This document shows positions 8,465 through 55,616 of a DNA stretch of 64,000 nucleotides, one piece after another. The position numbers and the translations under genes are program-made. The DNA is from an uncultured Bacilli bacterium. Lineage in GTDB: Bacteria > Bacillota_I > Bacilli_A > RF39 > UBA660. Within the stretch, counting starts at the first letter, position 1; each line of letters begins with the position of its first letter. Under the pieces are notes generated by a model. The model was not told the origin of the DNA. It worked only from the letters and a program-made list of their open reading frames with translations, and searched no databases. The stretch covers positions 37,344 through 101,343 of the forward strand of contig CANRCZ010000001.1 in the NCBI GenBank assembly GCA_947629265.1, written 5' to 3'.

Positions 8465-8550
8465 ACATTTATAATATCAACATAGAGAAGATAAATTATC
8501 TGAATATCAATCAAAATATGGTTAATAATAAAGTAGTAAAGGAGAATTAT

Positions 8551-11500
8551 ATGAAGAAGAAAGGTTTTACTTTAATTGAATTGTTAGCAGTAATCGTAAT
8601 ATTAGCAATCATAGCAATGATAGCAGTGCCAATAGTATTAAACTTAATTGAAAAATCTAGAAGAAATGCCTTTAAAGATAGTGTCTATGGCATTATGGAA
8701 GCAGCCGATCTATTTGTAGTATCAGAAAATTATAATACAAACGATGAAATAGAATTTGTCTGCAATGGAACATCTTGCTCTTTAGATGATGGTAGACAAC
8801 TATCATTTAAAGGAGATGTTCCTATAAGTGGAAGCATTCAAATAAAAGATAAAAATACTTTAGCATATTTTATAAAAAGTAATGAATATTGTGCTTTAGG
8901 TACAAAGGAAAGTTTAGATGTAAATAAAGATTGTACAGAACTAGATTATACGGGAGCTGACTTAGAATTAAAGTTAGTAAAAGCAACAACAAATAGTATA
9001 ATAGTATCATATAAAGCTACAGATGTTGAATCAGGAATATCTAGTGTAGAGGTTAAATTAAACAGTGATGTAAAAAAATTTACATATGATGATAAACCAT
9101 CTATTGTAACTAATGGTGGTACTGGAATATTATTTGATAAACTAGAAAACAATAAAGATTATACAGTAACTTTAACTGTAACAAATGGAAATAAAATAAC
9201 TAAAACTCAAGATTTAAAAGTATCAACTAAAGAAATGAAGAATCCTGATTTAATATCTGTAAACGATCCAACAGATGCTCAAGATGGATATTTTAAAACT
9301 CAAACTATACAAATAGATTTTGATACAGAAACTAAACCAGATTCAGCAAGATACTTTGTTAAAACTACTAAACAAGGTACAAGTAATATAGAGGTTACAA
9401 AGAAATGTGATACTAATGCTGATACAGATACACCAAATATCAATAGTTGTGAAACTATAGATAGTATAACTACTTTAGAAGAAAATGTATGGTATGAAAT
9501 ATCAGGTAACTTAGATGTAAAATACGATAGTACAGATAAAAATAAAGATAAAAATTTATATGCAATGACATATGATGGTACTAACTTTAGTGGAGTAGCA
9601 ACATATAATTTATCTATGATAGATGGAACTAAGCCAACATTAAAATTGGGTGAAATAATATCTAAAACAGATAAATTATCAATAGGATATACCGCAACTG
9701 ATGATGAGTCAGGAATAAAAACAAGAACATGTAATTATGGAACAGAAAGTGGAAAATATACTGAAACAGGTGTGGCATCTGAAACAAATTGTAGTATTAC
9801 AAAATTAAAACCATCAACAACATATTACTATAAAATATGTGTACAAGATAAAGTAGGAAATGAAGAGGTATGTCATGAGGGAAATACAATGACAAATGCC
9901 TTTGTAAATCCAGATCTACAGTCAACTATAAGTCCAGAAAAAGATGTTGATGGCTTTGTAAAAACACAAAGTATAACAGCAAAATTTAATAGTGAAAATA
10001 TGGATGAACCAAATCACTATATAAAATCAACAAGAGAGGGAACAGCAAGCGATAATGTAAAAGAAAGCTGTGGAGATGGTGAAAATCCAAGTAGTTGTTC
10101 AAGCATATCAGAAACAAAAACATTAAGTGCAAATACGTGGTATAAAGTAAATGGAGATACAATTACAGTAACATATGATAAAGCTAGTACAGAAACTAAA
10201 GATACTTTAACAGCCATAACATATGATGGAACTAATTATAGTGGAGTAGCAACATATACATTATCAAAGATAGATGCAACTAAACCATCATTTACAATGG
10301 ATAAATCAAAAATTACATCAACAACAAATAGTATAAAAATACCATATACAGCATCGGATACTGAAACAGGTGTAAAAGTAAGTTGTAAATATGGAACAAC
10401 TGATGGAAATTATGAAAATAGTGGAACATCAGTTGATAATACATGTACAATGTCAGGATTAACAGCAGGTACTAACTATTATTATCAAGTATGTGTTAGT
10501 GATGGTGTAGGAAACGAGGTACCATGTCAAACAGGAAATACATCAACAAATTCAATAACAGCACCAAGTATAACATTAACAACAAATACAACTGGAACTT
10601 TAACAGGTTACGCATTAAAACAAGTAGCAGCAGTAACATTTACAAATACTAATATAACCACCCCAACACATTATATAAAAACAACGAAAGCTGGAACAAG
10701 TAGTTCAAGTGTAACAGAAAGTTGTGGAAATGGAGATAAACCTGGAACATGTACAGGTATAACAAGTACAACAGCATTAGGAGCAAATACATGGTATAAA
10801 GTAAGTGGAAATACAGTATCAGTAACATATGACACACCAAGTACAGCTACTGGAACATTATCAGCCATAACCTATGATGGAACAAACTATAGTACAGTAG
10901 CAAATCAAGATATAAGTAAAATAGAACAACCAGCAACAGGAATAACATTAAATCAAACAAGTGCTACAATAAAAGTAGATGGAACAGTAACATTAACAGC
11001 AACGATACAACCAGCAAATGCAACAAATAAGAATGTAACATGGACAGCAGATAGTTCAGGTGTAGCATCAGTATCAAATGGAAAAGTAACAGGTCTAAAA
11101 GTAGGAACAGCTACGATAACAGCAAAGACAGCAAATAATCATAGTGTAACAGCAAGTATAAAAGTAGAAGCCAAAGGTGAATTATTATATGATAAAGTAT
11201 CTGTTGGAGATTACGTGGCTTATGATGCAGGTGTTTGGAATGAAACTGTAGAAAAAACGACATATAACTCATTTGGCGGATATACAAAAGGCAAAAGTAA
11301 AAATGAAACTGTAATATGTGACAATGATTCTATTTCAATGTATAAAGGTTGGAGAGTGTTGAAAAAAGATGCAGCAACTAAAAAAGTTACTATAATCCAT
11401 GCGGCAACACCTGAATGTTACTATCATGATTGGACAGATGACAGTGTAACTAACTTAAATACACGTGCAAATGAACAATATAAAAACTCATATGCCGATT

Positions 11501-19860: not shown

Positions 19861-20754
19861 ATGCTAAATTTTGATAATATTTTAAGTTGTTACAAAGAGG
19901 TAATGCGAAATACTAGAAACAAAAAAGCTGTTTTAAAATACGATAGTTTAAAATGTGTACACATATATGAAATATATAAAATATTAAAAAATAAAAACTA
20001 CAAAATGTCATCATATAACATATTTAAAATATATGAACCTAAAGAAAGAATAATCGTATCACTAAAACTAACCGATAAAATCATAAACCATCTAGTAACT
20101 AGATGCATCCTTATACCATCTATCATACCTATTTTAATTGACCAAAACGTTGCAACAAGACCTAATATGGGGACTAGTAAAGGAATAGAATACTATAAAA
20201 AATATCGTCAACGTTTTAACTATAAATATGGTAAATATTACATACTAAAATGTGACATAAAAAAATATTTCGCTAGTATCAATCATGATATACTAAAACA
20301 AATGTTAAAAAAAGTAATAAAAGATAACGACGCTTTAAATATTATAAATACCATCATCGATAGCTATCCAACCGGTTTAGCAATCGGATCAATGACAAGT
20401 CAGATTTTAGCGATATTTTACTTAAACGATTTTGATCATTATGTAAAAGAACAATTAAAAATAGAGGGTTATATCAGATATCAAGATGATATACTTTTAT
20501 TTCATAATGATAAACAATACTTAGTTGAATGTTTAGAAAAAATAAAAAATTACCTAAACGATAATTTAAAATTAGAACTAAATAATAAAACAAGAATATA
20601 TCATAGTCATGAAAAACTAATATTTATCGGTTATAACAAAAGTAAAGGTAAAATAAACAATAAAAAACATAAAAGAAGAAAAATATACGATAAAGGTTAT
20701 ATAACCTTAAACAGCTACATATCAAGTATTATGAGTTATAATTATATATCATAA
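19861..20754 (+). CDS. DGR reverse transcriptase
   Basis: YEPKERII and ATRPNMGTSKG (compare bRT YEPKPRLI and ACRPDKGTHAG). Motif-4 IGSMTSQ, the DGR hallmark I/LGxxxSQ that replaces QGxxxSP. Catalytic YQDD. Roughly 300 aa. Confidence 0.9.
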   Translation: MLNFDNILSCYKEVMRNTRNKKAVLKYDSLKCVHIYEIYKILKNKNYKMSSYNIFKIYEPKERIIVSLKLTDKIINHLVTRCILIPSIIPILIDQNVATRPNMGTSKGIEYYKKYRQRFNYKYGKYYILKCDIKKYFASINHDILKQMLKKVIKDNDALNIINTIIDSYPTGLAIGSMTSQILAIFYLNDFDHYVKEQLKIEGYIRYQDDILLFHNDKQYLVECLEKIKNYLNDNLKLELNNKTRIYHSHEKLIFIGYNKSKGKINNKKHKRRKIYDKGYITLNSYISSIMSYNYIS

Positions 20755-20917: not shown

Positions 20918-22069
20918 ATGTTGGAAAAAATAAAATTAGATAATTATACAACATTTTTAACACCTACCGACATTGATTTTAAAGCTACTAATTATAAATT
21001 TTTAGAAGATGAAAACGTTGGAAATAATAGAATATTAAAAGGATGTTTATTCGTTGGTGAAAATGCTTCTGGTAAAACCCAAATTCTAAAAAGTATTACC
21101 TTACTACTTGATTTGCTATTTGGTAATAATGAGGTAAATTTAATCGCTAATAAATGTTTTTATACCGATAAACCAACCTATAAACTAGAATATACATTTA
21201 TCGAAGAAAAAGAAATTGTCTACTCAATTGAATTAGGTCCTAATGAAATTGTTTCTGAAAAACTTATACTTGATAAACAAGTTATCTTAGAAAGATTAGG
21301 TAATACCGCTAAATTTAGTTTAAACGAAGAAAAAACATTTAATGATATTTCAAATAAACTACTATTCTTACGTAGAATATACTTTGATACTAATTTTTAT
21401 GAAAATAAAATTTTAAATAAATGGTTTGAATATATGAAAAAATCAGTATATATTAACTGTTACTACCGAACCGTTTTAACCTATTCAGGAACTAGTTTAT
21501 TAGTTCATGAATACCTAAACAATAATAATGTCGATACGATCAATAACTTTTTAGAAAAAATAAACTATAAACAAAAAATTGAATATAGTACTGAAAACTC
21601 TAGTTTAAACAATAAATTTTCTATTAAATCAAATGATAATACCAAGTTTATTTCCTTTAATAAACAAGGTACGGATATTTATATTCCTGAAATGTTTGAA
21701 TCAACAGGTAATATAACATTAATGGAGCTATTACCATCATTTTTACATGCTATCAATAATGAATGTATGATTATTATTGATGAATTTAGTAGTGGCTTTC
21801 ATAACGAACTAGAAGAATGTATAATAAAATATTTCTTTCATTATTCAAAAAATTCGCAATTGTTCTTTACATCACATTCTACAAACATATTAAATAATAC
21901 AATCATAAGACCAGATCAAATATATGCTGTTAATTTTGACTCTAAAAAAGGATCTATATTAAAAAGATTTTCTGAAGAAATGCCAAGAGAGTCACAAAAT
22001 ACAGAAAAAATGTATTTAAAAGGCATTTTTGATGGAATGCCAGATTATAACAAAGTCTTTAAAGACTAA
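20918..22069 (+). CDS. standalone AAA_21/ABC-type ATPase (possible defence or abortive-infection family)
   Basis: Walker A GENASGKTQ. Walker B-like IIIDEFSSGFHNELEE. H-loop region LFFTSHSTNILN. No partner gene adjacent. Confidence 0.5.
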   Translation: MLEKIKLDNYTTFLTPTDIDFKATNYKFLEDENVGNNRILKGCLFVGENASGKTQILKSITLLLDLLFGNNEVNLIANKCFYTDKPTYKLEYTFIEEKEIVYSIELGPNEIVSEKLILDKQVILERLGNTAKFSLNEEKTFNDISNKLLFLRRIYFDTNFYENKILNKWFEYMKKSVYINCYYRTVLTYSGTSLLVHEYLNNNNVDTINNFLEKINYKQKIEYSTENSSLNNKFSIKSNDNTKFISFNKQGTDIYIPEMFESTGNITLMELLPSFLHAINNECMIIIDEFSSGFHNELEECIIKYFFHYSKNSQLFFTSHSTNILNNTIIRPDQIYAVNFDSKKGSILKRFSEEMPRESQNTEKMYLKGIFDGMPDYNKVFKD

Positions 22070-22950: not shown

Positions 22951-23778
22951 TTAATAAGCTATTTTCCAAGCTTTTTGACCAAATTGATCTTGTCCCTCAC
23001 CAGTTGTTAAAATACCAGTTTTAAGAACTATTACAGGACGGAAACCATTTAAGCCACTTGCAGTGGATGGACGACCATCAGCAAGCATGTAATATAGACC
23101 AGTACCACCACTAGGATTTGCTAGCCAATAAACTGTTCCTATGCTTCGTAATGGATCACTCTGATTAAGATTTTCAATTTCTTCTAATTTAATTGAATGA
23201 GCTGAATCTGCAAATGTGTCATTTACATACAGTTTTTGAGCTCTATCATTTAATTTATTTATACTATCAGTTGAATTGCTTCCAAAATAATAACATTCAG
23301 GTATTCCAGCATGAATTAATGTTACCGTTTTATTGACTGTATCTTTTGATAAAATCCGCCAGCCTTTTAATGTAGTTTTATGAGTGTCACTATAACATTG
23401 ATCTATACTATCATTTTTACTATTACCTATTGTGTAGCCACCAAATTCATCTCTATTACTTGGTATTTCTTTTGTTTCATTCCATTTACCAGCATCATAC
23501 GCAACATAATCTCCTACATTTGCCACATCCGCTAAATATCTGGTTACCTTTCCACAAGCATTTACATTTTCTTCCAACTTATCAATTTTAACAATGGATG
23601 TATTGATTAAATCATCCAAAGCTTGTTTAACAGTAATAGTTTTATTATCTTTAGTATAACTAACACTTTCACTACTTAATTGACTAACACCATATGTAAT
23701 ACTAGTCGCTAATACAGCACCACATATAGATCCAACAATAAATTTTTTTTGACTTAACAACTTGTTAATAAGTTTCAT
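22951..23778 (-). CDS. DGR-target family paralog (intact signal peptide plus CLec-like C-terminal domain; VR-like region diverged from the TR)
   Basis: N-terminus ...ITYGVSQLSSESVSYTKDNKTITVKQALDDLI matches the frame-restored N-termini of the two G-tract genes. C-terminus YWLANPSGG...GFRPVIVLKTGILTTGEGQDQFGQKAWKIAY. Confidence 0.75.
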   Translation of the reverse strand: MKLINKLLSQKKFIVGSICGAVLATSITYGVSQLSSESVSYTKDNKTITVKQALDDLINTSIVKIDKLEENVNACGKVTRYLADVANVGDYVAYDAGKWNETKEIPSNRDEFGGYTIGNSKNDSIDQCYSDTHKTTLKGWRILSKDTVNKTVTLIHAGIPECYYFGSNSTDSINKLNDRAQKLYVNDTFADSAHSIKLEEIENLNQSDPLRSIGTVYWLANPSGGTGLYYMLADGRPSTASGLNGFRPVIVLKTGILTTGEGQDQFGQKAWKIAY

Positions 23779-29751: not shown

Positions 29752-31101
29752 ATGATACAAAGTCATACGATAAAATATGAAAATAATGAAGAAATTTTAT
29801 ATTTGTATTTAGATTTTTCTAATGAGTTCGCTAAAGAATTAGGTGATAAAAATAAATCTATTTTTAGCAACATAAAAAAATATTTAAAAACTCTTAAAGA
29901 TGATTTTAAGGGTACAAAGGTAGTTATTGTAGCAAGTGGTATTGTCCTTGCTACTTTAACTTTAAATACTGGTTTAATGCGTCAAAATGCAGTCGCTAGA
30001 AATGATAATAATTTATATATTACATCCGTTCATTTTAATGAACCTAGTGTTGTTGTAAAGGATGATAATGTTGAAGAAACAGTAGAAACTAAAAAGGTAG
30101 AAACTGTTAAACCGGAGGTTAAAACTAGTCAAACTAATACGAATAAACAGACTACTACTAAAACGACTAGTCAAAAAAGTACTAGTAATAAAACTACTAG
30201 TACAAATAGTAATACAACTAAGTCAACTACTAAACAAGAAACTAAATCAACAACCAAAACGACAACTAAAACTACTAATCAAACAACAAAACAATCGACA
30301 AATCAAACAACTCTTAAAAACCCTATAACTATCTATCGCAGTAATGGTGATATCTTAAAACTGGAATTTGAAGATTATATAATCGGTGTCGTAGCCGCTG
30401 AAATGCCAGCTTCCTTTAATACAGAAGCTTTAAAAGCCCAAGCTGTTCTCGCTAGAACATACGCTTTAAAAACAGTTAAACAAGGTAAAAAACTAACTGA
30501 TACTGTAGCTACCCAAGTTTATAAAGATAATAACCAACTTAAAAAATTATGGGGTAGTGAATATTCCAAATACTATAACAAAATAAAAGATGCTGTAAGT
30601 AGTACCAAAGATTTAACTGTTAAATATAACGGTGAATATATCGAAGCTGTCTATCATTCGATAAGTAATGGTAAAACCGAAGATGCTAAATATGTATGGG
30701 GTAATAGTTTTCCTTATTTACAAGTTGTGGATAGTGCTTATGATGCAAATGTCAAAGACTATAGTAAGACTGTAACTAAATCATATACGGATGTATCATC
30801 TAAACTAGGTATTACCGTAACTAAAAATAGCAATATCGAAATATCTAGAAACGATAGTGGTAGAGTTAGTAATTTAACTATCGATGGAACAAGCTTTACT
30901 GGTGTAACTATCAGAACTAAATTGAACTTAAGATCAACTGACTTTGATATCGAACAAGGTGAAGATAGTTTAAAAATAACTACTAGAGGTTATGGTCACG
31001 GTGTCGGTATGAGTCAATATGGCGCTAATGAATACGCTAAAAAAGGTTGGACTTATAAACAAATAATAAATCATTATTACCCAGGTGTTAATATATCGTA
31101 G
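29752..31101 (+). CDS. SpoIID/LytB-domain protein with a Thr/Ser-rich linker
   Basis: C-terminal SpoIID domain (GYGHGVGMSQYGA). N-terminal TM. Low-complexity linker TTKTTSQKSTSNKTT... Confidence 0.7.
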   Translation: MIQSHTIKYENNEEILYLYLDFSNEFAKELGDKNKSIFSNIKKYLKTLKDDFKGTKVVIVASGIVLATLTLNTGLMRQNAVARNDNNLYITSVHFNEPSVVVKDDNVEETVETKKVETVKPEVKTSQTNTNKQTTTKTTSQKSTSNKTTSTNSNTTKSTTKQETKSTTKTTTKTTNQTTKQSTNQTTLKNPITIYRSNGDILKLEFEDYIIGVVAAEMPASFNTEALKAQAVLARTYALKTVKQGKKLTDTVATQVYKDNNQLKKLWGSEYSKYYNKIKDAVSSTKDLTVKYNGEYIEAVYHSISNGKTEDAKYVWGNSFPYLQVVDSAYDANVKDYSKTVTKSYTDVSSKLGITVTKNSNIEISRNDSGRVSNLTIDGTSFTGVTIRTKLNLRSTDFDIEQGEDSLKITTRGYGHGVGMSQYGANEYAKKGWTYKQIINHYYPGVNIS

Positions 31102-31616: not shown

Positions 31617-31696
31617 TAATATAATTTTTTTTCATTTACAAATAACGTATAATATGTTAAAATTTAATTGTAAAATAAGGAAAGGAAAGATAAAAA

Positions 31697-32792
31697 ATGA
31701 AAGAAAAAATAAGGCTTGGGGGGGGGTTATTTACTAATAATTTTAATACTATTAGTGGTAACTAATGGTATAACATATGGTGTAACTAGCCTACAAAGTG
31801 AAAGTGTTAGCTACACTAGAAATGGCCAAACTAAAAGTGTGAAACAAGCACTAGATGATTTAATTGTTAAGGTTGATCAAAAGAGTGGTAACTTTAATAT
31901 TGAGTTAAAAGAAAGAAATCTAGCAGTAAATTTTACGGAGAACGTATCAACTTATAAAACAATTGTTGATAATGTATTAAGTAAAATGATAACTGCAATG
32001 GGTAGTGATGTTAGTACTGCAGAGTTAACAGCATTAAAAAGTGCAACGTTAACATGGACAAGTCAAAATAATGGTATTGCAACTGTGGTTAGCGGAACAA
32101 CAGTAAAAGGTGTTGCAGCAGGACAAACAAAAATAATAGGAACAGCACCTAGTGGACAACAGGTAATAGTACCAGTAAAAGTAATAAGTGCAGTATATTT
32201 AGCCCAAAAAGCAACAGTTGGAGATTACGTGGCGTATGATGCTGGAACATGGTCTTCAGCAGTAACAACTAAACCAACAGGTCAAGGAACTTTTGGAGGA
32301 AACGCAGCAAATAATAAAGGAAATAGTGTATCATCATGCTTAAGTAGTAGCTACTCTACCTCATTAAAAGGTTGGCGCGTTTTAAAAATTGAAGGTAATC
32401 AAGTCTACCTAGTCCATGCCGGTCAACCCGAATGTTACTATCATGGACAAGACCAGAGTGCTAGTATAACTAAATTAGATGCACGAGCAAAAGAATATAT
32501 GAATTCATATGCCCAATCAGCTCATGCTATTACTAAAGACGAGGTTGATGCTATTACCAATACTAGTGATACCTTACGGAAGACTGGAGATTATTATTGG
32601 TTGGCAACTCCATATAATGGCCTCAGCGGTGGCTACTTGTATTGCGTGCACCCGGATGGTAGCATAGCCAACTACTGCCGCAACAGCTCGGACGGTTTCC
32701 GACCTGTAATTGTTCTAAAATCTACAATCCTAACCACTGGACAAGGATCAGATGGTTTTGGACATAATGATGCTTGGTTAATAACAATTTAA
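31697..32792 (+). CDS. DGR-target family paralog. Frameshifted at a G9 tract, so phase-variable or OFF. Big_2-like middle domain plus CLec-like C-terminal domain.
   Basis: ATG at 31697 with RBS AAAGGAAAG reads MKEKIRLGGGLFTNNFNTISGN*. Removing one G gives MKEKIRLGGGYLLIILILLVVTNGITYGVTSLQSESVSYTRNGQTKSVKQALDDLI..., continuous with ORF 31716-32792. The 5' region is about 80 percent identical to 17440-17640. Confidence 0.72.
31718..31726 (+). repeat. G9 homopolymer tract in signal-peptide codons (candidate phase-variation switch)
   Basis: Nine consecutive G. The frame is restored by -1 G. Confidence 0.65.
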
Positions 32793-32835: not shown

Positions 32836-32857
32836 AAAGGACTAATGTCCTTTTTTA
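32836..32857 (+). terminator. rho-independent terminator
   Basis: aaaggac taat gtcc hairpin followed by a T-run. Confidence 0.6.
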
Positions 32858-54735: not shown

Positions 54736-54825
54736 TGCCTGAGTGGCGAAATTGGTAGACGCACAGGACTTAAAATCCTGCGGGAGTCAAATCCCGTGCC
54801 GGTTCAAGTCCGGCCTTAGGCACCA
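54736..54825 (+). tRNA. tRNA-Leu (anticodon UAA)
   Basis: GCCTGAGTGGCGAAATTGGTAGACGC 5' end, long variable arm, anticodon loop CTTAAAA, encoded CCA. Confidence 0.8.
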
Positions 54826-54861
54826 ACTTGTAATTAAACTCGAATTTTCGAGTATAAATAT

Positions 54862-54890
54862 AAAAACGACTTGTCAAAAGGTCGTTTTTA
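54862..54890 (+). terminator. rho-independent terminator after tRNA-Leu
   Basis: aaaaacgac ttgtcaaaag gtcgttttt. Confidence 0.65.
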
Positions 54891-55089
54891 TGATATTATG
54901 AATGTGTCTAGGAAACTTGCATAAAATAAAAAAGGGAATATTCAGTTTTTCGAGTTGAATGTCTACCCAATTTATATTGAACTAGACGCTTATTCTAGCG
55001 AATGAGTGTCATTTTTTATAACTACTATCATAATGATAAGGAGAAATAAAATAATTTTAGATAAAATTATATAAATTGTTTAAAAAGTA

Positions 55090-55119
55090 TTGACTTTACT
55101 ATCAATAAGATGTTATAAT
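55090..55119 (+). promoter_or_regulatory. sigma-70-type promoter for the tRNA cluster
   Basis: TTGACT, a 17-18-nt spacer, then TGTTATAAT, about 60 nt upstream of tRNA-Ser. Confidence 0.55.
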
Positions 55120-55176
55120 TTTAATGCGTTTTAGTTAAGGACGCATAATTATATTTGATTTGTATATAATTATTAT

Positions 55177-55267
55177 GGAGAAATACCCAAGTGGTTGAAG
55201 GGTCCGGTCTTGAAAACCGGTAGGTCGGGCGACCGGCGCCTGGGTTCGAATCCCAGTTTCTCCGCCA
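55177..55267 (+). tRNA. tRNA-Ser (anticodon UGA)
   Basis: GGAGAAATACCCAAGTGGTTGAAGGG start, long variable arm, anticodon loop CTTGAAA, CCA end. Confidence 0.8.
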
Positions 55268-55277
55268 TTTATAATAT

Positions 55278-55354
<77 letters not shown>

Positions 55355-55358
55355 ATGT

Positions 55359-55434
55359 GGTCTCGTGGTGTAGCGGTTATCACGTCTGCCTGTCACGCAG
55401 AAGATCGCGAGTTCAATTCTCGTCGAGACCGCCA
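55359..55434 (+). tRNA. tRNA-Asp (anticodon GUC)
   Basis: GGTCTCGTGGTGTAGCGGTTA... with anticodon loop CTGTCAC. Confidence 0.8.
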
Positions 55435-55442
55435 TTTATTTT

Positions 55443-55518
<76 letters not shown>

Positions 55519-55539
55519 TTTATATATATACTTACTTAT

Positions 55540-55616
55540 CGGAAAATGGCTCAACTTGGTAGAGCACTTGGTTTGGGACCAAGGGGTTGCAGGTTCAAAT
55601 CCTGTTTTTCCGACCA
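55540..55616 (+). tRNA. tRNA-Pro (anticodon UGG)
   Basis: CGGAAAATGGCTCAACTTGGTAGAGCA... with anticodon loop TTTGGGA. Confidence 0.8.

Follow-up and report, generated by a model that had tools for sequence, protein, structure and literature searches.

The window, the 64,000-nucleotide stretch of DNA analyzed here, carries two related genes that are headed by a guanine homopolymer, copy 1 (W1, 17472-18546) and copy 2 (W2, 31697-32792); L-numbers denote other loci of the same family. Upstream of copy 2 lies a sigma-70-type promoter (31635..31663, plus strand) composed of TTTACA, a 17-nt spacer and TG-TAAAAT, with 10 of 12 consensus matches and an extended -10 element. The Shine–Dalgarno region AAGGAAAGGAAAG (31677..31689, plus strand), which the paralogs keep, is placed 7 nt before the ATG at 31697-31699. 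This ATG opens a zero-frame short ORF (31697..31765, plus strand) that encodes the signal n-region MKEKIRL, GGG and 12 out-of-frame codons, and in its present frame reads MKEKIRLGGGLFTNNFNTISGN, 22 codons ending at TAA 31763-31765. The G9 homopolymer, the proposed slippage switch (31718..31726, plus strand), starts 21 nt after the ATG; beyond MKEKIRL and G9 the frame continues as LFTNNFNTISGN up to the TAA, and the leader would be in frame with the main ORF at G8 or G11. The main ORF of copy 2 (31716..32792, plus strand) occupies the +1 frame, contains a TTG at 31716, and encodes the anchor YLLIILILLVV, a helical/Big_2 region and a C-terminal C-type-lectin-like domain. When one G is removed, the repaired translation reads MKEKIRLGGGYLLIILILLVVTNGITYGVTS and so on for 364 aa, open through the stop at 32790-32792, and its N-terminus MKEKIRLGGGYLLIILILLVVTNGITYG joins n-region, anchor and ectodomain. 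A terminator-like hairpin followed by a T-run (32836..32853, plus strand) lies 3' of the gene. The initial annotation had already described the ATG, RBS, tract and 22-codon stop and had proposed that loss of one G fuses the leader to the ORF at 31716-32792; on re-reading, all of these sequence statements are correct.

Copy 1 is preceded by a promoter (17410..17438, plus strand) with TTGAAA, a 17-nt spacer and TATAAT, an architecture also found at L064 and L065. Its zero-frame short ORF (17472..17540, plus strand) encodes MKEKIRFGGGVFNNDFNTISSN followed by a stop and contains a G10 homopolymer (17493..17502, plus strand) that would be in frame as G9 or G12; the tract is G10 in the independent contig L041 as well. 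For this copy the earlier reading needs amending: the tract is G10, and the ATG lies at 17472 instead of 17473. The copy 1 main ORF (17503..18546, plus strand) has no start codon in its frame from the stop at 17485 to the TTG at 17638, that is, before residue 56 and beyond the anchor. Thus, the anchor of copy 1 is obtainable solely through a change of frame.

Removal of one G from copy 1 yields a protein of 357 aa that is 58% identical to repaired copy 2, and the 5' regions of the genes (31653-31780 in copy 2 and 17428-17555 in copy 1) are 84% identical, close to the roughly 80% estimated earlier. The tracts share alignment columns (G10+TATTTA in copy 1 vs G9+T+TATTTA in copy 2) and differ in the final position of the tract, where G is replaced by T, so that both keep an excess of 1 nt. 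Because they occupy the same columns, the tracts are homologous and represent a single shared frame state rather than independent slippage outcomes. The column-for-column alignment agrees with the suggestion that the tract was inherited along with the gene and contradicts the description of the copy 2 tract as independent.

Apart from the tracts of the two copies, the 64-kb window, which has 27.9% GC, contains no G or C run of at least 6, and base composition predicts only 0.003 runs of at least nine G per window. Of the 822 Gly codons in the long ORFs of the window, only 19 (2.3%) are GGG, and GGT makes up the largest share (58%). The low expectation and the rarity of GGG together exclude a chance origin of the tracts. 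Three GGG codons are kept in every tract locus, and the retention of the run in spite of this codon bias indicates that the run is selected. The run has survived even though W1 and W2 have diverged to a dS of 0.69. Between these copies the repaired frame evolves under purifying selection, with a dN/dS of 0.43 as a whole and 0.17 over its initial 28 codons, among which the tract lies. The paralogs likewise keep the promoter, RBS and ATG. The leader MKEKI(R/K)(L/F) is kept in W1, L064, L065 and L066, and MKEKI(R/K) is maintained at the protein level despite a synonymous GAA/GAG change.

Directly 3' of copy 1, on the plus strand, lie a MutS_I-domain (MSL) accessory gene (18617..19063), a bAvd-like accessory gene (19041..19415), a template repeat (TR) of 104 nt (19466..19569) and a reverse transcriptase (19861..20754; RVT_1, E = 2.4e-15). 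This cassette is a diversity-generating retroelement (DGR) of the MSL-Avd architecture (Wu et al., 2018; PMC5758913), so that reverse transcriptase, TR and Avd are all present in the genome. Copy 1 is its cognate target: the C-terminal variable region (VR, 18368-18471) differs from the TR exclusively at TR adenines. The DGR-target status of the family to which both genes belong had been overlooked in the earlier reading. Copy 2 carries a VR-like patch (32600..32712, plus strand) homologous to the VR of copy 1, with 54% GC and 21% A in a gene body of 35% GC and 39% A. Compared with the TR at 19466-19569, this patch shows indels and many non-A mismatches, unlike a DGR-target VR, and therefore the VR of copy 2 is not currently templated by the TR in the window. 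As the patch keeps the composition signature of a VR, a second TR elsewhere is possible. Two further family members in the window are free of a tract: the C-terminus of a 1084-aa prepilin-type ORF (8518-11772) and a gene at 22951-23778 on the minus strand. The remaining neighbors are ordinary chromosomal genes (AddAB-like helicase-nuclease, RNase III, SpoIID, CinA and SpoU), the closest relatives are gut MAGs labelled uncultured Bacilli, and an Rfam scan of the window returned tRNAs only, with no match at the tract.

Both copies are members of a large protein family that combines Big_2 and C-type-lectin-like domains with a membrane anchor or a prepilin-type N-terminus. An AlphaFold model of repaired copy 2 (pLDDT 85.5) has three parts, including an N-terminal helix and a Big_2 Ig-like domain, and the variable residues fall on the C-type-lectin-like (or Ig-like) fold. 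A type IV prepilin is recognized by the cleavage and methylation motif G↓F-T-L-I-E followed by a hydrophobic helix. Copy 2 does not have the form of a type IV prepilin (PF07963), as GGG-YLLIILILLVV is without Glu5 and gives no PF07963 match. Conversely, KGFTLIELLAVIV follows the tract in L066, L067, L001, L020, L027, L029 and L068, and the run of these pilin-type members forms part of a bona fide prepilin signal (ending in KKGFTLIELLAVIV), within the leader that is cleaved off. In the W-type members, the run follows the basic n-region and precedes the hydrophobic anchor. At both positions, glycines gained or lost should be harmless. The MKEKIRL leader of copy 2 recurs unchanged in L066, which is a true prepilin.

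A search of 5.8 billion proteins recovered 74 homologues of repaired copy 2, many per contig. About 25 of these are tract-free and have ordinary N-termini with basic residues followed by a hydrophobic stretch, for example MKRILTRIFDKKRFVFVFGLLIG. Another 37 are truncated calls, which begin with MGGGY (13 proteins, called from a TTG or GTG start at the tract), with MVTNG(I/S)TYG (19), with MTSDGVSY (4) or further in (copy 1). In this collection, no tract-type close homologue among the 37 is annotated with an in-frame leader-GGG-anchor, the tract lengths of most having been deduced from annotated N-termini and not read from DNA; with random phase, such a result would be expected at (2/3)^37, about 3e-7. 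With no in-frame call among the 37, switching is something that we infer rather than observe.

At the DNA level, a module of promoter, RBS, short basic leader and poly-G heads 14 distinct family loci, with W-type anchors as well as bona fide prepilin signals, in the window, in rabbit-gut MAGs and in several ENA samples (gut metagenomes). The suggestion that the family shares a leader-plus-poly-G design is thereby borne out, and the anatomy is that of a contingency locus. The runs are G6, G8, G9 or G10 in length, with G9 at 10 of the 14 loci. Eleven loci are out of frame (9 of the 10 G9 loci and both G10 loci), of which nine would be corrected by -1 nt and the other two by +1 nt. The frame is restored by -1 nt in W1 (G10), W2 (G9), L064, L065, L066 and L067 (all G9 then T-TAT), and L012, L027 and L029 (all G9), and by +1 nt in L001 (G10) and L020 (G9). 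Conversely, the tract of L068 (G8, coverage 11) leaves the main ORF in frame with the ATG that the RBS serves, and L070 (G6) is in frame too; L069 (G9) is ambiguous, since its RBS-proximal ATG is out of frame and a second ATG is in frame. A single 1-nt change of the tract gives an uninterrupted ORF of 357-707 aa at 10 of the 11 out-of-frame loci, the lone exception being L012, which has a second frameshift. As the tract is the sole lesion in these 10 loci, they are not decaying pseudogenes. The in-frame L068 and the out-of-frame L020 are identical over the 78 nt 5' of the tract and encode proteins that are about 73% identical. Judged from these sequences, the promoter-leader-poly-G module is apparently portable between otherwise diverged genes.

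The module was sought more widely. A family alignment scan of genome contigs found solely distant relatives (24-41% identity) with the tract in 5 of 40 loci, and about 270 kb of these genome loci (L001-L040) held no further G or C runs of at least 7. Among 17 metagenome loci from the protein scan (L047-L063) there was no G-run of at least 7, a single G6 in L056 being the sole run of at least 6. A DNA pattern of tract plus anchor codons had 0 matches in metagenome contigs. A leader-plus-tract scan of viral contigs likewise had 0 matches, and the module is therefore no phage element in that collection. Within single loci no length variation was seen: W2 has G9 in the window, L042 and L044, and W1 has G10 in the window and L041, the independent contigs having only about 2x coverage and accessions from one ERZ27249xxx series.

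We consider it fairly probable that the G9 at 31718-31726 is a simple-sequence-repeat phase switch that operates by replication slippage and is OFF by default. Transcription and translation would start normally, from the promoter at 31635-31663 and the strong RBS at ATG 31697. With G9, the ribosome would exit the tract in the wrong frame and halt after 22 codons, leaving the gene OFF. Slipped-strand mispairing during replication would occasionally produce G8 (or G11), which would join the positively charged MKEKIRL-GGG to the hydrophobic anchor and ectodomain and turn the gene ON, a state that would be heritable, reversible and confined to a minority of cells. With nearly all copies OFF by default, a population would carry rare cells displaying one or a few paralogs, and the DGR would separately rewrite the ligand-binding tips of the paralogs displayed. 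The tract of copy 2 is long enough for a contingency locus (about 7-8 or more G or C in an ORF or promoter), and a change of the repeat toggles the product between truncated and full-length forms, G9 giving 22 aa and G8 giving 364 aa. The anatomy, the run kept against codon bias, the intact downstream ORFs, the in-frame G8 and G6 elsewhere and the DGR context form the basis of this reading. The switch is further favored by the identical upstream module of the in-frame G8 at L068 and the out-of-frame G9 paralog at L020, and corrections of both signs among the OFF loci are expected of slippage around an ON length. That length changes occur frequently at the copy 2 locus, and that these rather than RNA-level slippage give rise to expression, we infer. 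Against the switch stand the lack of same-locus length polymorphism in three assemblies for W2 and two for W1, at about 2x coverage, the very uniform tract length, with G9 predominating, and the W1/W2 substitution, which preserves the OFF frame exactly as a permanently out-of-frame design would. The absence of any ON allele among the 37 close homologues means that a switch would need strong selection or mutational bias toward OFF; ON cells may be rare or strongly counter-selected, so that consensus assemblies are always OFF.

Since no length polymorphism was seen and no close homologue is ON, slippage in transcription or translation remains a real rival, even if on balance an unlikely one. Under it, the genes would be permanently out of frame by design and would yield a constant, low and noisy amount of full-length protein with the DNA unchanged. 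RNA polymerase could slip on G9 or G10, a length equal to that of the RNA–DNA hybrid, or the ribosome could shift +1 at the rare and slow GGG, for instance from GGG in the P site with a hungry GGG in the A site to GGG-GGU. The close W-type clade, taken alone, has a uniform need for a frameshift: all 37 protein calls share it, and all six loci with DNA have a 10-nt unit (G9+T or G10) that needs -1 nt, the offset being unchanged through the W1/W2 substitution. Given the rarity of GGG and the abundance of GGT, G9-T also resembles a +1 site of the hungry-codon type, and frameshift suppression at phase-variable repeats has been described for M. bovis mod1 expressed in E. coli (bioRxiv 10.64898/2026.04.01.715767). 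However, the shift is not in a single direction across the family, as L001 and L020 need +1 nt, and in-frame alleles exist in L068 and L070. The zero-frame tails vary in length and sequence, unlike those of dual-product recoding genes, and no stimulatory element appears to be shared: a hairpin of 11-13 bp that lies 16-19 nt past the tract (19 in W2; z -3.7 for W1 and -0.7 for W2) is probably too distant and is found in W-type loci only, being absent from the pilin-type loci. As for transcriptional slippage in particular, efficient cases are documented mainly at A/T runs. DNA-level switching and slippage of RNA polymerase or ribosome are not mutually exclusive.

It is very unlikely that the upstream ATG is irrelevant and that translation starts at a TTG (31716 in copy 2) or GTG overlapping the start of the run, in which case MGGGYLL and so on would be made and the gene would simply be ON. 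Such a codon does stand immediately 5' of the run in W2, L064, L065, L066 and L067, gene callers use it in the 13 MGGGY homologues, and MGGGYSTLKNKGFTLIE would still be plausible as a prepilin leader in the pilin-type members. The Shine–Dalgarno spacing is nevertheless unusable, because the nearest candidate, AAGG, ends 1 nt before the TTG and is AAAG in L064 and L065, and the strong RBS is positioned for the ATG, whose leader is conserved as protein. Moreover, W1, L012, L020, L027 and L029 have no canonical start codon at this place, and the product would be without the basic n-region that all tract-free paralogs have. The leaky expression from TTG 31716 suggested in the initial annotation is accordingly weak for copy 2, and the start-free main frame of copy 1 speaks against it there. 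We give just as little credence to the idea that the genes are inactivated relics or silent cassettes that merely donate sequence by recombination. All close homologues are frameshifted, L012 has its second frameshift and the W2 VR mismatches the local TR, but the tract is otherwise the only lesion, it always falls at the same homopolymer, itself kept against codon bias, the dN/dS values are low (most of all over leader and anchor), and promoter, RBS and ATG are conserved. Least credible is a miscount of the homopolymer in sequencing or assembly, with G8 as the true length. Homopolymers are error-prone and the independent contigs have low coverage; however, the same length recurs in independent assemblies from different samples and studies, offsets of both signs occur, and the in-frame G8 of L068 was called at 11x coverage by the same kind of pipeline. 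The tract records whose names reveal the assembler (L001, Lapin and ERZ 'NODE_') are of SPAdes-style short-read origin, L070 being a scaffold and the method for the window being unstated.

Several other readings of the region were rejected. Termination and reinitiation at the zero-frame stop would use a TAATG overlap (31763-31767) that leads into the wrong frame, and the product of a nearby GTG is without the anchor. A role of the tract in DGR homing was set aside, as the tract is about 900 nt upstream of VR and IMH, and a G-quadruplex was dismissed because there is a single G-run only. A prfB-like arrangement, with the SD-like AAGG before CTT, is unconserved, being AAAG in L064 and L065 and AGACGT in L067.

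Poly-G phase variation in 5' coding regions, with an example from a gut Gram-positive bacterium, is already known, as are multi-target DGRs of the MSL/Avd type. Classical contingency loci comprise poly-G/C tracts in genes of Campylobacter, Neisseria and Haemophilus and the CTCTT repeats in the signal-peptide region of the multi-copy opa genes of Neisseria. Such loci, which have been reviewed (PMC8355987; PMC5084427), resemble the tract genes in having a simple sequence repeat near the 5' end of the coding sequence of surface-exposed proteins, within a leader tolerant of additional residues, and in forming a family of genes that are switched copy by copy, with most of them OFF at any time. The tract genes differ in their lineage, uncultured gut Bacilli and not Proteobacteria or Campylobacterota, in that the tracts are confined to one gene family in the DNA examined and form no genome-wide phasome, and in that strain-to-strain length variation is so far undocumented for them. 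By analogy, the closest documented case of the tract design is the sortase-dependent pilus G-tract of Bifidobacterium breve UCC2003, in whose genes, bbr_0113 and bbr_1889, an intragenic G-tract separates a signal-peptide ORF from the main ORF (Penno et al., 2022; PMC9187656). There, the reference strain carries the OFF genotype, pili are restored by in-frame lengths (-1+3n), which become enriched in the mouse gut, and the annotated internal starts have neither SD nor signal peptide (PMC9187656). The likeness extends to the setting, a Gram-positive gut commensal with poly-G between a signal-peptide short ORF and a surface-protein ORF, to a reference state that is OFF and would be turned ON by -1+3n, to internal starts without SD or signal peptide, and to conservation of the tract across related strains. 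In contrast to B. breve, a G-run is much less to be expected in the 28% GC genome here, dozens of paralogs and not just two operons begin with the tract, and the proteins, which are DGR targets, have a lectin fold and are TM-anchored or resemble type IV prepilins instead of being LPXTG pilins; switching is here a proposal made from the sequence.

Wu et al. (2018; PMC5758913) have described multi-target DGRs whose accessory genes are MSL (MutS-like) and Avd, and cite Treponema denticola TvpA as a case of remote DGR targets. The element in the window shares with them the order target, MSL, Avd, TR and RT, the adenine-only TR-to-VR changes at the C-terminus of a lectin-fold protein and the scattered paralogous targets, and departs from them in the W2 VR, which the local TR does not template. 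Gut Bacteroides likewise diversify adhesive pilus-associated proteins by DGR, although these are adhesins of type V pili in Bacteroidota (bioRxiv 10.1101/2024.11.15.621889); the full text of that report mentions neither phase variation nor homopolymers nor frameshifts. More broadly, no description of DGR targets gated by a homopolymer frameshift was found in full-text searches of the one library of papers used. Programmed recoding, such as prfB-type +1 frameshifting and transcriptional slippage at homopolymers (Baranov et al., 2005; PMC1088944), is similar in the conserved need for a frameshift among homologues and in a slippery run with rare codons, and differs in that the direction here is mixed, in-frame alleles exist and there is apparently neither a conserved second product nor a shared stimulator. 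What would be new is the combination, in an uncultured Bacilli lineage of 28% GC, of DGR diversification with a conserved module that, to judge from sequence, controls around half the members of a large family.

The near-universal OFF state is the most intriguing point of the family, and the uniform out-of-frame state provides a natural test case for slippage at poly-G at the level of DNA as opposed to that of RNA or the ribosome. A broader proposal, which we advance tentatively and think rather unlikely as a whole, is two-tier hypervariation, in which the portable module would stochastically pick the displayed paralog among dozens, the DGR would rewrite its binding, and an evolved default-OFF state would be partly read by slippage of RNA polymerase or ribosome on rare GGG. 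On the practical side, automated annotation truncates the tract genes, half of the family being called as MGGGY or MVTNG proteins, and surveys of DGRs that demand intact target ORFs would under-count or mis-describe them. If the tract works as a switch, one family would combine two ways of diversifying that are otherwise separate, stochastic ON/OFF expression of many paralogs and retroelement rewriting of their binding sites. These uncultured gut Bacilli would then have a very large range of surface specificities that could be explored at low cost, be it for adhesion or to evade IgA or phage.

Copy 1, the W-type paralog with the G10 tract, is the target gene of a complete diversity-generating retroelement (DGR) cassette at window 17472-20754. 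Besides this target, with its variable region (VR) at 18368-18471, the cassette holds an MSL gene with a MutS_I domain, a bAvd-like gene, the template repeat (TR) at 19466-19569 and the reverse transcriptase gene. All mismatches between the TR and this VR fall at TR adenines. Directly 3' of the reverse transcriptase gene lies an ORF for an AAA_21 (AbiEii-like)/SMC_N ATPase (20918-22069). Copy 2, the gene at 31697-32792 with the G9 tract, has a VR-like patch at 32600-32712 that is rich in GC and poor in A, as is typical of a DGR VR. Aligned against the in-window TR, the patch shows 9-nt and 3-nt indels and numerous non-A mismatches. Copy 2 is either templated by a second TR elsewhere in the genome or an orphaned DGR target. 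Two additional family members in the window have no poly-G tract: a prepilin-type protein of 1084 aa (8518-11772) with N_methyl, fn3-like and Big_2 domains and the homologous C-terminal domain, and a minus-strand gene (22951-23778) whose 275-aa product is identical to the homologous protein P0043. Elsewhere in the window, the SpoIID-domain ORF at 29752-31101 contains imperfect tandem repeats (30124-30207) that encode a Thr/Ser/Asn/Lys/Gln-rich stretch (TSQTNTNKQTTTKT…), and six tRNA genes (Leu-taa, Ser-tga, Met, Asp, Phe and Pro-tgg) cluster at 54737-55616; no tRNA-Gly gene was found within the 64-kb window.

W-type copies, which encode a hydrophobic anchor after the tract, share a conserved 11-13-bp hairpin that starts 16-19 nt 3' of the tract (window 31746-31771 and 17519-17548) and encloses the TAA of the ATG frame. 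The hairpin segment of copy 1 has a z-score of -3.7. Because the hairpin overlaps conserved anchor codons, it may be incidental; it is absent from the pilin-type loci, where the tract lies inside the leader of a prepilin signal.

Among homologous loci from other assemblies, contigs end 30-80 nt 5' of the tract at L020, L066, L067 and L068, and 9 nt short of it at L043; the contig ends of L068 and L020 have 78 identical nt in common. Such ends near the tract fit a promoter-leader module that is a multi-copy repeat and breaks short-read assemblies. The copy-2 locus in an independent assembly (L042, 1158-1167) has a tract of unchanged length, with G9 followed by A, not T; with coverage of only ~2x, this A may reflect either a genuine substitution or a sequencing error after the homopolymer. 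The sole degraded-looking tract locus is L012 (3124-3400), a homologue with a second frameshift ~60 codons downstream. A further subgroup, comprising L069 (1480-1530) and the proteins P0082, P0084 and P0086, has two ATGs in different frames 5' of G9: the RBS-proximal ATG is out of frame, whereas the other, 9 nt 5' of the G-run, opens the correct frame (MSIWGGV...). Since the two ATGs differ in frame, members of this subgroup could make a product in two of the three phases of the tract.
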